Of a stretch of 64,000 bases of DNA, positions 21,606-26,259 are shown piece after piece (within the stretch, counting starts at the first letter, position 1; each line of letters begins with the position of its first letter). Under the pieces are notes generated by a model, which worked only from the letters and a program-made list of their open reading frames with translations, made no database searches and was not told the DNA's origin. The DNA comes from Nitrosopumilus sp. (GTDB taxonomy: Archaea > Thermoproteota > Nitrososphaeria > Nitrososphaerales > Nitrosopumilaceae), in contig OZ250186.1 of assembly GCA_965238275.1 (NCBI GenBank), forward strand, positions 421,982-485,981, written 5' to 3'. Made by a program: the position numbers and the translations under genes.

Positions 21606-23024
21606 TCAGGGCAGAGATATGGTGTTGAAACCATAGTCCCGGCATGTGTCGTAGTGGTTTTTTATCTCAGGCTCCCAGCCGTGACGCGCATCCAGCATGT
21701 TCAGGGATCTTCTTAGCGGGGCGATGGTGTCATAGTATTTGGTGTTCCGGTGGATGAGGCTCTGCAGGAACTTGTCCTGCGGAAGCGAGTTGCTCTTTTT
21801 GCAGTTGCATTTCTGGCACGCCAGAACCAGATTCCATGCGCTGTCATCAAAGATGTACGACCACGGGATAAAGTGGTCCACATGGATGTAGTCATTCTCC
21901 AGCCTACCTTTACAGTAAAAGCAGTGGCTGGTGTGTTTTAAGAAGAGTCTTCTGTATCCGGTGAGCTGGCCCCTGGCAGACTCGTCCATGTGGATCTTTG
22001 CCAGTAGTCTTGGCAGGCCTATGTTTGTCCGCTCAAGAAATCTAGTCCATTCTGCAAGGACTGTCCCCATGAGTATGCCGTGATTTTCCCTGAAGAATTC
22101 AAAGGCCTCGGGCCTGAGGCGGATCATCTTGGTATCATCACTGTAGTCGTAAAAGATGCGATTTTCCTGTGATCTCTGACCTACCTTGATTTTTTGGAAC
22201 CGGGGCACGACCATGGATGTCTTGCTTCTTGCGTGCCCGAAGACGGTTCTGAGTATCCTCTGTTTTGCTCTTGCTTTGTCGGCTGTATTAAGACCAGCAA
22301 AGCTGCCCGGAGTGTTTTTGCCAAAGACGTCTCTAATTACCTGAACCACCTTTGGCGTGCTCTTGGTGTGAAAGTCCTGTTTTATCTTAAATCTGCACTC
22401 CTGATGCCAGTAGTATTGCAGGAATTTTTCGGAGAGTTGCTCGTATGGTATCTCCAGAGAGTATTTCATACCATTGGACTCCCGACAATGATCCAGGATG
22501 GCTCTGGCAAGGGCAAACTTGTATGTGTTGTCTTTGACCCCCTTGGTAAGTATTGACAGGAATGCCTGCCTCATCTGTGCCTCCGAGGCAGTACCCCTGT
22601 CGGGTTGGACCAGATGTGCAGAAGACCGTGAATCGTAGCTCATCTCTGGCATGTCTTGTGGATGGGTAGCTGGCCGTACGAGCCTGAATATCCCATACCG
22701 TTTGCCGGGGTTCAGGTCTGCTATGGTTCCATTCTTCCTAAGCTTGGAGAGATACTGGGATGTGGCGTTGGAAAAGTCGCTTGAGTGCCTGGTAGGTCCC
22801 CATACATCAGGATGCAGTTTCAGGATTCGTGCCACAGACTCGTCAAGCTGTTTTTTGCGGTGCCAGACGGCCATGTTTCTGGGGCCTTTTTGGGGGGGTG
22901 CCGCCAGATATCTGCTGCCGTGCTCCTCCTCAAGATCTTCTACGGTTCTGCCATTCCTGTTCAGAATATACATGACTGCATCCGGAATCTGATCGTATGG
23001 AATCTGGTTTTGGGTGCCTGCCAT
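21606..23024 (-). CDS. HNH endonuclease-domain protein with about 390-aa unassigned N-terminal region (McrA-like architecture)
   Basis: C-terminus HCFYCKGRLENDYIHVDHFIPWSYIFDDSAWNLVLACQKCNCKKSN (Cys4 HNH). Upstream DNTYKFALARAILDHC helix-rich region. Confidence 0.75.
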   Translation of the reverse strand: MAGTQNQIPYDQIPDAVMYILNRNGRTVEDLEEEHGSRYLAAPPQKGPRNMAVWHRKKQLDESVARILKLHPDVWGPTRHSSDFSNATSQYLSKLRKNGTIADLNPGKRYGIFRLVRPATHPQDMPEMSYDSRSSAHLVQPDRGTASEAQMRQAFLSILTKGVKDNTYKFALARAILDHCRESNGMKYSLEIPYEQLSEKFLQYYWHQECRFKIKQDFHTKSTPKVVQVIRDVFGKNTPGSFAGLNTADKARAKQRILRTVFGHARSKTSMVVPRFQKIKVGQRSQENRIFYDYSDDTKMIRLRPEAFEFFRENHGILMGTVLAEWTRFLERTNIGLPRLLAKIHMDESARGQLTGYRRLFLKHTSHCFYCKGRLENDYIHVDHFIPWSYIFDDSAWNLVLACQKCNCKKSNSLPQDKFLQSLIHRNTKYYDTIAPLRRSLNMLDARHGWEPEIKNHYDTCRDYGFNTISLP

Positions 23025-23157
23025 GACTAAGCGTGTGAGATTCGGCTTAAAAAAATAGCGAATAGGCAGATGGGATGGGCCAGTTTTAGATGCAGGGTTT
23101 TGTATGACATGGATAAGCAGACAGGAAGGTACGGAACGGGCGGATATTCAGGGATGA

Positions 23158-24063
23158 TCATGTTTGTTGCGGATCAAGTTTTAGGTATTGCTTGTATTCT
23201 TTTACGTAGCGTTTAATGAACCACTGCAGGAATATTGCGTCATTTTTTTCTGTCTGGGATCTCTCAAGTGCGTTGTAGTAGCTGCGTCGTTGCTTGTATG
23301 GAATATCAAACATCGGGTATCCTTTGCTGTTTAGTATAAAATTCATGACAAGTCTCGCAACTCTGCCGTTGCCGTCTCCAAACGGGTGTATTGTTACCAG
23401 ATTCAGATGAATCAGTGCTGCAAGTTCTACAGGATGAATCTTGTTTTGATTTCTTTTATACCACTGGAAAAATTCTGTCAGCATTGGATATACCTCTACT
23501 GGCATAGGCGGGGTGAATCTGCTTCCGCCTATTCCCACCTGGTATTTTCTAATTGCCCCTGCAATACCAGGCTTTGTCTTTTCAAATAATTTCCAATGCC
23601 AGTCCAGCAGCACATGCAGTGTAAAATTTTTTTTAAATTTTAACATCTCATTAAACATATCCCTGTGAGCCTCGGCCTCATGCACATCCTGCATGGGTCT
23701 GTCTTTCGGAGCAATGTTATTTACCAGCAGATCTGCAGTCTCCCTCCTGGTTAGAGTTGAGCCCTCTATTTTTTGGGTGTCATATGTGAATTTTATGGTA
23801 AAATTTTGAACTTCTTTTTCCTTGATTGATTTTGGAATGTATTTTTGTTCTCGGGCATAATTTTTCTGAATCCTGTCCATGTCTGCATGCCATCTTTGTT
23901 TTCGTATCTCATCTGCAAACTCTTTTTTGATTTTTTCAATATGGGCAGGCATGTCTGTCCCCAGATACCTTTCTTTTTTTGTTATCCTGCTCCCCTCCCT
24001 CATACTGTGTTCCAGATAATAGTATGTCCTACCCCCAAGATGCCTTTCCCTGATTCTTACCAT
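23158..24063 (-). CDS. Fic-family protein (AMPylase-type), with intramolecular inhibitory motif
   Basis: Canonical HPFGDGNGRVAR. TQKIEG matches (S/T)xxxE(G/N) and lies N-terminal to the core. Confidence 0.9.
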   Translation of the reverse strand: MVRIRERHLGGRTYYYLEHSMREGSRITKKERYLGTDMPAHIEKIKKEFADEIRKQRWHADMDRIQKNYAREQKYIPKSIKEKEVQNFTIKFTYDTQKIEGSTLTRRETADLLVNNIAPKDRPMQDVHEAEAHRDMFNEMLKFKKNFTLHVLLDWHWKLFEKTKPGIAGAIRKYQVGIGGSRFTPPMPVEVYPMLTEFFQWYKRNQNKIHPVELAALIHLNLVTIHPFGDGNGRVARLVMNFILNSKGYPMFDIPYKQRRSYYNALERSQTEKNDAIFLQWFIKRYVKEYKQYLKLDPQQT

Positions 24064-24265
24064 GTGTTTTGATACCCCTACAGATTTATATAATTTTCAT
24101 TTTTAGTGAAATCGTAGAGGTAATAAAACCCGGATAAACCAAAAAAAAATAACACGGTATCTCGGATAGGGCAGTTCGATTCTAGTCTAGGCCAGTATTT
24201 GCGACTAGGCTGTCCTTGTCATACAGAAGCGTTCGGTCCTTTTCATACATCTGTGAGAGTATATC

Positions 24266-24383
24266 ATAGCAGTGTATTCTGAGCCTAAGGCTGTTTACGA
24301 TATTTTATGATGTCGTCAAGAAACCTAGACGTGATGGTCCAGTTCTCGTTCCATGTCTCACGTCTCTGCACGATTTCTAAGAG
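24266..24383. repeat. degenerate duplicate of the 3' end of the HEPN gene
   Basis: 24266-24299 is identical to 24396-24429 (34 nt). CCATGTCTCACGTC and ATTTCTAAGAG blocks recur at 24351-24383 and 24445-24469. Confidence 0.85.
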
Positions 24384-25045: not shown

Positions 25046-25243
25046 TTACTGGGTGCTTGTGACTATAATCGTGAATTTACACCAGGCGCCGGGGGCGCCG
25101 CTGTCGTAGCAGGCGCGTATCTTGACCTTGTATTCCTCGCCCCCGTCGAGTCCGGTGATGGTGTGGTCAGGTGAGGTAGGGAAGGCATGGCGTTGCCGAC
25201 AGAGTCTCTTCAAAACGGATAGTCCACGCCTGACTTGGCCCAT
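25046..25243 (-). pseudogene. fragment resembling a fibronectin type III repeat
   Basis: ITGLDGGEEYKVKIRACYDSGAPGAW in an isolated GC-rich patch with no credible start. Confidence 0.3.
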
Positions 25244-25409
25244 GTTACGCGGCAGTCATTGGGCGTCTCGGTGGGCGTATCCCAGGAAGCCTAGATCGTC
25301 CCTAAACCAATCTCTTAATAAACACCATTATCTCCATAATGACAGACGATTTGGTATTCCTAAAGAGACAGACTCATACTGCACAAAAGGATGCAACTCA
25401 GAGCATGAG

Positions 25410-25901
25410 TTGGAGACTGAGGCCGTACAAAGGGACATCTCCCAAAACGTTTTGGTACGACAAATTCTTGGCAAGTATGTCAGATGGGACAGGTTCTCAG
25501 GCAAGATGGGGATGGTCTCGACGCCCAAGGTAATCATGAACCTGTTATGCAGGGAACTAGATGACAAAGATATCGACGAGATGGTCGATGCCGTATTTCC
25601 AGTGGTCACGGACTCTGTCATGTTTGCCAAGGGCGGGTATGATCTGAAGAGGGCCATTGAGACCCTTGAAGACTATATGAGATCATCCGGAGTAAACTCT
25701 GATCATCGGGTGAATGGGGACATCCATGTGTTTATCATCCAGCATGATTTGGGAATAAACTGGTCTATCTTTTCAGAACGGGTTTTGTCACGAATGTTTC
25801 GCGGTTTTCTGCCCGAGAAGGACCTAGAATTCCAAACCACCGACTCGACTGTAATTCTATCCGTGGCGTTGGGCGCTGATTTTGATGAGCATGACTATTA
25901 A
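25410..25901 (+). CDS. hypothetical protein, start uncertain (TTG 25410 or ATG 25506)
   Basis: Long open frame. Possible RHH-like segment RDISQNVLVRQILGKYV. No family recognised. Confidence 0.35.
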   Translation: METEAVQRDISQNVLVRQILGKYVRWDRFSGKMGMVSTPKVIMNLLCRELDDKDIDEMVDAVFPVVTDSVMFAKGGYDLKRAIETLEDYMRSSGVNSDHRVNGDIHVFIIQHDLGINWSIFSERVLSRMFRGFLPEKDLEFQTTDSTVILSVALGADFDEHDY

Positions 25902-26185
25902 ATCATAAATTCAGACAGTCATTTGAAATGCGTCTTCGCATATCGTCCTCAAAGCCCGCCTTGTTCCTGCCGGGAAAAAGGCAGCGGTGCGACAAATCGC
26001 CGTCATTCCATCCTCCTTTGACTCAGCTGATGCTGGTGCGACCAGGATGATGGGATGTGTTGGGATTTGGAGAATGCCGTTTCAGAAGGTGGCATGAGGG
26101 GTGGTTCAGGAACCTGGAGAGGCGTTTATGGTAATGTTTGGAGCGCCATCAAGGGCAGGAACATAGAAAGGTTGTGATGCAATAG

Positions 26186-26259
26186 CGGGTCTAGAGGGAT
26201 TCGAACCCTCGACACCAGGATTAAGAGTCCTGCGCGCTACCTGGCTGCGCCATAGACCC
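26186..26259 (-). tRNA. tRNA-Lys (anticodon CTT)
   Basis: Hand-folded. Acceptor GGGTCTA/TAGACCC. D stem GCGC/GCGC. Anticodon stem CAGGA/TCCTG with loop CTCTTAA. T arm GAGGG-TTCGAAT-CCCTC. Confidence 0.9.

Follow-up and report, generated by a model that had tools for sequence, protein, structure and literature searches.

We analysed the interval between tRNA-Lys and the nikR-znuABC genes in a 64-kb stretch of thaumarchaeal DNA (the whole stretch is called the window below; overall GC content 0.516), whose nearest genomes are metagenome-assembled genomes labelled Nitrosopumilus sp. or Cenarchaeum sp. Three consecutive minus-strand genes encoding an HNH nuclease, a Fic protein and a HEPN protein lie in this interval. 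A preliminary description made from the sequence had noted them and had proposed that they form one horizontally acquired island and a candidate defence or toxin module. The gene calls themselves were borne out, with open reading frames (ORFs) of 472, 301 and 132 aa, as was the placement of a tRNA-Lys gene whose 3' end faces them. The features of the locus, in window coordinates, are as follows.

21606-23024, minus strand: HNH nuclease gene, 472 aa (ORF call and Pfam HNH_4 and HNH)
23158-24063, minus strand: class II Fic (AMPylase-type) gene, 301 aa (ORF call and Pfam Fic)
24384-24782, minus strand: putative Swt1-like HEPN gene, 132 aa here (truncated), TTG start (PADLOC PDC-M34B)
24182-24429, minus strand: HEPN 3'-end lesion caused by a 130-bp imperfect tandem duplication
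23073-24035: segment of the Fic gene body missing from the sister genome L001, with microhomology CATC(T)TG at the borders
26185-26259, minus strand: tRNA-Lys(CTT), found with ARAGORN, its 3' end (26185) towards the variable region
24783-26184: species-specific filler of ~1.4 kb between HEPN and tRNA-Lys
25122-25901 at most, plus strand: orphan ORF in the filler, called as 197 aa in conspecific contigs
25046-25243, minus strand: weak FN3-like ORF (Pfam E 0.044) in a GC-rich piece (about 24830-25250)
21206-21589, plus strand: nikR-like regulator (Pfam NikR_C and RHH_1)
20133-21059, minus strand: znuA
19348-20142, minus strand: znuC
18489-19343: znuB, beyond znuC

The other flank, beyond tRNA-Lys, carries an SRPBCC-domain gene and cytochrome oxidase genes. 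A TATA-like element, picked by eye, lies ~25-35 nt upstream of each of the HNH, Fic and HEPN start codons, which suggests that the three genes would be transcribed separately.

The HNH gene is intact in this window. Residues 368-415 of its product matched Pfam HNH_4 (PF13395) with 50 bits against a cutoff of 22 and HNH (PF01844) with 31.4 bits against 21.4, and C368, C371, D383, H384, N398, C403, C406 and N407 were invariant in 31 homologues. Profile scores above the cutoffs together with the conserved catalytic His/Asn and zinc-binding Cys residues identify the protein as an HNH nuclease. Residues 1-364 gave no significant match in Pfam (sub-threshold noise) and none in PADLOC or NCBIfam, in line with the earlier view of a Cys4 HNH protein with a large unassigned N-terminal region. 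An AlphaFold (AF2) model of the protein, with a predicted local distance difference test score (pLDDT) of 83, showed a winged-helix-like N-terminal domain (residues ~10-115), a central alpha/beta domain (~148-345) and a Cas9-type Cys4 HNH domain (~355-472). When the full model was searched with Foldseek against the PDB and BFVD, only the HNH domain was matched (Cas9-type and phage HNH), and a profile search of PDB sequences with the HNH family likewise returned matches to HNH domains alone. The central domain modelled alone (residues 140-350; window 21975-22607) reached a pLDDT of 86.7 and a predicted template modelling score (pTM) of 0.85. It had no match in the PDB by Foldseek (best E 0.54, template modelling score <=0.25) and belonged to no Pfam, PADLOC or NCBIfam family.

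Cas9 HNH domains were the best sequence and fold matches of this protein, which shares with the Cas9/IscB-type HNH nucleases a Cys4 zinc-bound beta-beta-alpha-metal HNH domain with the D-H...N...N residues. However, only the C-terminal ~100 residues match, and neither a RuvC domain nor guide-RNA features are present here. The protein is not a member of these families, as the cas_Csn1 model scored 37.8 bits against a threshold of 100 and IscB scored 33 against 175, with the HNH segment alone aligned in both. Stand-alone HNH defence nucleases available for comparison are PtuB and PDC-M01B; unlike PtuB, the window protein has no PtuA-like ATPase partner here.

A total of 534 homologues of the HNH protein were detected, and the best 120 of these were nearly all full-length, with 44-99% identity. 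The family is found mostly in Nitrosopumilaceae, and many relatives with an HNH gene carry the label Cenarchaeum or sponge symbiont. A single-copy core gene was considered and rejected: 2-4 copies are present in eight genomes, some of which bear a sponge-symbiont label, the contexts vary, and the gene is split by an insertion sequence (IS) in some strains. Thaumarchaeal members mostly stand alone. Distant bacterial relatives with 24-28% identity consist of the central domain plus HNH in about 345 aa, of which PADLOC and NCBIfam recognise only the HNH domain. These bacterial genes (loci L056-L068) adjoin one of three partners, namely a 105-aa MazG/PRA-PH-like gene, a ~190-aa S-adenosylmethionine-dependent methyltransferase gene matching PADLOC mad2 (1e-15), or a HIT-family gene matching PADLOC ThsC (2e-9). 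A MazG-like gene also lies near HNH in two thaumarchaeal loci (L011 12253-12567 and L043 11600-11938). The bacterial HNH relative with its MazG-like, methyltransferase or HIT neighbour may represent an undescribed two-gene arrangement.

The Fic protein matched Pfam Fic (PF02661) with 81.2 bits against a cutoff of 24, with the core at residues 147-244. Its active-site motif HPFGDGNGRVAR at residues 226-237 conforms to HxFx(D/E)GNGRxxR, and an inhibitory motif of the TxxxEG form, TQKIEG, is located at residues 96-101, N-terminal to the core; both motifs, the former intact, had been recognised in the preliminary description. In class II Fic proteins, one polypeptide carries both the Fic core and, N-terminal to it, the (S/T)xxxE(G/N) inhibitory motif. 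Judged by its motifs, the window Fic is a class II protein, predicted to be self-inhibited, and its intramolecular inhibitory helix would make an antitoxin gene unnecessary. Homologues number more than 3000, and the best of them, with 63-73% identity, belong to Nitrosotalea, Nitrosotenuis, Nitrososphaera and Nitrosopumilaceae.

In PADLOC, Fic matched the single-gene models PDC-S04 (2e-32) and SoFic (5e-30). SoFic, which reportedly works on its own as an AMPylase in abortive infection (PMC12249575), shares with the window protein the Fido fold with a canonical motif and an inhibitory helix in the same polypeptide. However, the window Fic has 301 aa compared to a profile of 361 positions, of which the match covers positions 19-267 and leaves out the C-terminal part; a C-terminal domain has been reported as critical for Sofic toxicity (PMC12249575). 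The NCBIfam equivalog model ProtAdlyltaseSoFic scored 27.8 bits against a cutoff of 550, so that the window Fic does not qualify as SoFic itself; unlike SoFic, it belongs to a thaumarchaeal clade. Sofic is reported to have a small antitoxin, AS1, encoded downstream. A 44-aa ORF does occur on the minus strand at 23027-23161, with an ATGA overlap with the Fic stop codon and its end just ahead of the HNH start. This ORF is probably spurious, because it is uncalled in conspecific contigs and spans HNH upstream sequence that is conserved where Fic is absent.

The HEPN protein carries the Rx4H motif as RNDVRH at residues 107-112, as had been described. The 132-aa ORF alone had no Pfam match, and its family assignment comes instead through an intact allele and relatives. 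It matched PADLOC PDC-M34B with E values of 7e-16 to 1e-16. The intact 156-aa allele of a conspecific contig matched Pfam HEPN_Swt1 (PF18731) with an E value of 0.003, and the homologue P0122 matched this family with 7.6e-5, both scoring below the cutoff; the direct PF18731 scores of the HEPN family were 18.1 and 23.4 bits against a gathering cutoff of 27.5. A profile of the family retrieved 1353 representatives, and all 50 of the 50 scanned matched HEPN_Swt1, with a best E value of 3.8e-14. Because these relatives match HEPN_Swt1, the assignment of the window protein as a putative Swt1-like HEPN holds by transitivity. Proteins of the window family have the Rx4H motif and a domain length equal to that of Swt1-like HEPN, but stand alone with ~156 aa, unlike most PF18731 relatives. 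The latter mostly carry the HEPN domain C-terminally in proteins of about 300, 700-800 or 1700 aa, and fusions to DndB, BrxL, GmrSD_N, CHAT, ACT and others were observed.

PDC-M34 is a two-gene candidate system that calls for adjacent A and B components. The B component alone was matched here; PADLOC found no match to PDC-M34A in the HNH protein (in full or as residues 1-364), Fic, the orphan ORF or the neighbours of HEPN homologues. Literature searches on PDC-M34 and on Swt1-like HEPN returned no publications. The PADLOC scan that had been advised gave matches to Fic and HEPN models without completing the PDC-M34 pair. The statement that each of the three families is found repeatedly in defence or toxin settings was confirmed by the SoFic and PDC-S04 matches of Fic, the PDC-M34B match of HEPN and the HEPN fusions to DndB, BrxL and GmrSD.

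The HEPN gene is damaged at its 3' end in this window. Within the 130-bp duplication, 34 nt are repeated exactly (24266-24299 and 24396-24429). The duplication separates the ORF from its original final ~30 codons (24182-24299), which include those for the family-invariant residues D130, L132, Q134 and E137. In the conspecific contig L003 and the sister genome L002, which lack the duplication, a single copy joins 24396 to 24299 and an intact 156-aa HEPN is encoded. The duplicated HEPN 3' end that the preliminary description had listed as gene debris is therefore real in this sequence.

We compared the locus with those of its closest relatives. Conspecific contigs (99.7% identical) showed the order SRPBCC, tRNA-Lys, orphan, HEPN, Fic, HNH, NikR and ZnuABC, and the trio was stable in at least eight of them. 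The order HNH-NikR-ZnuA-ZnuC-ZnuB was kept in L002 and L003, and NikR-ZnuA was found near HNH in L001. In L002, with an HNH 72% identical, HEPN lies directly upstream of HNH in the same orientation with a gap of 60-170 nt and no Fic, followed by NikR-ZnuABC. In L001, with an HNH 79% identical, HEPN is split by IS66 and Fic is missing. L001 9898-9975 corresponds to window 24098-24036 joined to 23078-23055; what is left of Fic there is its TATA-like upstream sequence and the initial 28 nt of its ORF, in which ACG replaces ATG, and a CATC(T)TG microhomology marks the junction with the sequence upstream of HNH. This remnant is the footprint of a ~963-bp Fic deletion mediated by microhomology, and it shows that the common ancestor with L001 carried Fic, which L001 later lost.

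An IS605-type OrfB/TnpB element (Pfam OrfB_IS605 and Cas12f1-like_TNB) splits HNH in at least four conspecific assemblies (L082 7567-10500, L085, L086 and one further conspecific genome). The ratio of nonsynonymous to synonymous substitution rates (dN/dS) between species was 0.17-0.23 for HNH and 0.125 for HEPN, comparable to 0.12-0.23 for NikR and ZnuA, so that HNH and HEPN have been functional over that time span. Nevertheless, the three genes are individually dispensable, since HEPN is truncated in the window, HNH is IS-split in other strains, and L001 has lost Fic by deletion and HEPN by IS insertion.

Co-occurrence was examined in a scan of GTDB species genomes, which gave 52 thaumarchaeal HNH loci from 41 genomes with neighbours within +/-10 kb. 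HEPN was found at 2 of these 52 loci, both in sister species, NikR at 2 and Fic at 1. Clustering of 947 neighbour ORFs from 70 HNH loci revealed no conserved partner: apart from the MazG-like, methyltransferase and HIT partners, which are mostly bacterial, the clusters were generic ABC ATPases or reflected lineage-specific synteny. The six HEPN loci examined (47-63% identity) were without HNH or Fic, and the homologues there are solitary, in housekeeping surroundings or next to toxin-antitoxin genes of another kind, adjoining hemA, PPDK/TIM or an unrelated MNT-HEPN pair. The three Fic loci examined (66-70% identity) had three unrelated contexts without HNH or HEPN; one Fic homologue lies among core genes, and that of another genome lies in an IS-rich region. 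The genes thus occur independently elsewhere (HEPN 2/52, Fic 1/52, and 0/9 at the HEPN or Fic loci), which the preliminary description had itself named as evidence against its module, and the co-occurrence across unrelated genomes that marks a multi-gene defence system was not found for the trio. The only other Fic within 10 kb of an HNH-family gene (42% identical) occurs in L051 (4612-5457 and 10001-10888), 4.5 kb from an HNH copy truncated to residues 18-316, with an IS66 transposase between them.

The composition of the locus was calculated per gene over 62 window ORFs (mean GC 0.517, sd 0.052). Fic was the most AT-rich gene of the locus (GC 0.405, z -2.2), with a z of -1.8 for GC at third codon positions (GC3). 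HEPN had a GC of 0.429 (z -1.7) with GC3 close to normal (z -0.6). HNH, with a GC of 0.505 (z -0.24) and a GC3 of 0.611 (z 0.0), looks compositionally native, and the orphan ORF had a GC z of -0.6. The AT-rich stretch is confined to about 23050-24850 and is followed by a GC-rich piece (0.58) at 24850-25300. Fic and HEPN are therefore AT-richer than their surroundings, as had been judged by eye, and a foreign composition is supported for Fic and less clearly for HEPN. The AT-richer island that had been drawn over 21606-26259, however, does not extend to HNH, and foreign composition over the whole interval was contradicted by HNH, the orphan ORF and the GC-rich piece.

With regard to integration, the preliminary description had pointed to the tRNA 3' end as an integration site and to a repeat of it at the far border as a check. 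A search with a 9-nt seed found no repeat of the tRNA-Lys 3' end in 20900-27300; across the 64-kb window, allowing <=3 mismatches, there was no second match of the tRNA-end 23-mer and one chance-level match of the 16-mer. Among the ORFs of 21606-26184 scanned against Pfam (HNH, Fic, HEPN, orphan and FN3-like), no integrase or recombinase was detected. In L002, on the other hand, similarity to the window ends exactly at the tRNA-Lys 3' end, and an exact 13-nt copy of that end (CCTCTAGACCCGC) is present 3.5 kb downstream of the tRNA. This att-like (attachment-site-like) repeat encloses fragmented ORFs (L002 2818-6435), one of which, of 195 aa, has a weak Phage_integrase match (E 0.08). The segment is probably a remnant of an element integrated at tRNA-Lys, and the repeat indicates that tRNA-Lys is an integration site in this lineage; HEPN and HNH of L002 lie outside the att-bounded element. 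The proposed role of the tRNA 3' end thus stands for L002 but was not reproduced in the window. As in tRNA-adjacent islands, variable content starts exactly at the tRNA-Lys 3' end here; unlike in such islands, the window shows no integrase or att repeat, and its foreign composition is only partial.

The filler between HEPN and tRNA-Lys is 92-96% identical between strains, compared to 99.7% for the rest. In tblastx searches it had no relative outside conspecific contigs except for the first ~130 nt upstream of HEPN. The orphan ORF belongs to no Pfam, PADLOC or NCBIfam family. The FN3-like fragment, which had been listed as debris, gave only a weak match (14 bits against a cutoff of 25, E 0.044). 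These data support the view that variable, accessory sequence adjoins the 3' end of tRNA-Lys. A GC-rich FN3-like segment of ~224 bp (window 25080-25303) is carried twice in the conspecific contig L003 (1347-1876).

Taken together, we read the tRNA-Lys to nikR-znuABC interval, with a probability of about 0.75, as a variable hotspot of accessory genes that holds three independent, self-contained genes. HNH is read as a resident nuclease whose winged-helix-like and central domains most likely contact DNA, with cleavage at the Cas9-type beta-beta-alpha-metal site; as it has no fixed partner gene, it may act alone as a type IV-like restriction enzyme or a selfish nuclease. Fic would have entered between HEPN and HNH before the split of the window species and its closest sister, and its composition suggests that the donor was probably a lower-GC ammonia oxidiser. 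HEPN would be a minimal Swt1-like putative RNase with Rx4H. Several points weigh against this reading. In three species HEPN and HNH are neighbours with a common orientation and evolve under purifying selection, which makes a two-gene partnership within this clade possible. The contexts cover only six HEPN loci, representing four distinct homologues, and three Fic homologues, and tblastn at E 1e-3 could miss weak HEPN relatives near other HNH genes. Furthermore, the promoters were assigned by eye inspection, and the 130-bp duplication in HEPN could be an artefact of this particular assembly.

The original proposal, an undescribed three-gene defence or toxin module acquired together at the tRNA-Lys 3' end, is consistent with the adjacency and common orientation of the genes beside the tRNA, with the recurrence of all three families in defence contexts, with the persistence of the trio across eight or more conspecific contigs and its presence in the common ancestor with L001, and with the use of tRNA-Lys as an integration site in L002. 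However, the native composition of HNH, its adjacency to nikR-znuABC in two sister species, and the lack of an att repeat or integrase in the window do not fit a single horizontally acquired island. The occurrence of HEPN-HNH without Fic in L002 and the inactivation of single genes in strains that keep the others also argue against a joint function, and outside the small clade the 52 HNH loci offered one distant Fic and no non-sister HEPN, while the nine HEPN or Fic loci offered no such combination. We therefore regard the three-gene module as highly improbable. A smaller unit is conceivable, in which HEPN and HNH form a clade-specific nuclease module (RNase plus DNase) and Fic was inserted later. 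The two genes are directly adjacent and co-oriented in L002, their adjacency is ancestral to the three species, both are under purifying selection, and HEPN matches the B component of PADLOC PDC-M34. Residues 1-364 of HNH match no PADLOC model, though, so HNH is not PDC-M34A; HEPN is missing from the remaining 50 thaumarchaeal HNH loci, as is HNH from the six HEPN loci of more distant relatives. Simple vertical descent would be enough to explain the adjacency in three close relatives, and one gene has been lost while the other stayed intact (HEPN in L001 and the window, HNH in L082). This two-gene module therefore appears quite unlikely.

For Fic, a role outside defence and toxicity was also considered, either as a host-interaction effector of a sponge-associated archaeon or as a housekeeping regulatory AMPylase kept throughout the thaumarchaea. 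Of 11 sponge thaumarchaeal symbionts, 7 were reported to have FIC-domain proteins, against none of the free-living genomes compared, and a possible part of these proteins in modulating the host was discussed (PMC7848895). The Cenarchaeum or sponge-symbiont labels of many HNH-bearing relatives would suit such a role, as would the 63-73% identity of the Fic family across distant thaumarchaeal genera and the one homologue among core genes. However, close homologues also occur in free-living Nitrosotalea, Nitrosotenuis and Nitrososphaera, and Fic looks accessory rather than housekeeping, being AT-rich, deleted in the sister species and in an IS-rich setting elsewhere. A non-defence role of Fic is thus unlikely, and the accessory-gene hotspot remains our preferred reading of the locus.

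On this hotspot reading, the trio should not be advanced as a candidate new defence system, and the locus is an ordinary hotspot with new members of known families. It illustrates how genes turn over at a hotspot beside a tRNA gene in ammonia-oxidising archaea: Fic was gained and then lost through microhomology, insertion sequences struck HNH and HEPN, and L002 keeps an att-bounded remnant. To our knowledge, there is very little experimental knowledge of antiviral and selfish-element biology in Thaumarchaeota. The HNH family, not the trio, is the more novel lead, as it is unannotated beyond its HNH domain, and it makes a reasonable target given the confident model of a central domain without a PDB counterpart. 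It is a tentative and rather doubtful suggestion that the protein represents an undescribed stand-alone nuclease family, possibly a modification- or nucleotide-sensing archaeal defence nuclease, which the Swt1-like HEPN might partner in this clade.

Low GC content is not restricted to Fic and HEPN, as six other window genes were equally AT-rich, and four of these six are surface-glycan genes. The latter belong to a low-GC surface-glycan cluster (GC 0.38-0.46; window 50630-51379, 53023-54357 and 58627-60800) with sulfotransferases, a GT2 glycosyltransferase, a UDP-glucose dehydrogenase and a nucleotidyl transferase as products. Two further AT-rich ORFs (GC 0.43), at 9878-10315 and 12026-12580, have no Pfam family, and the second of them adjoins tRNA-Val (12613-12688).

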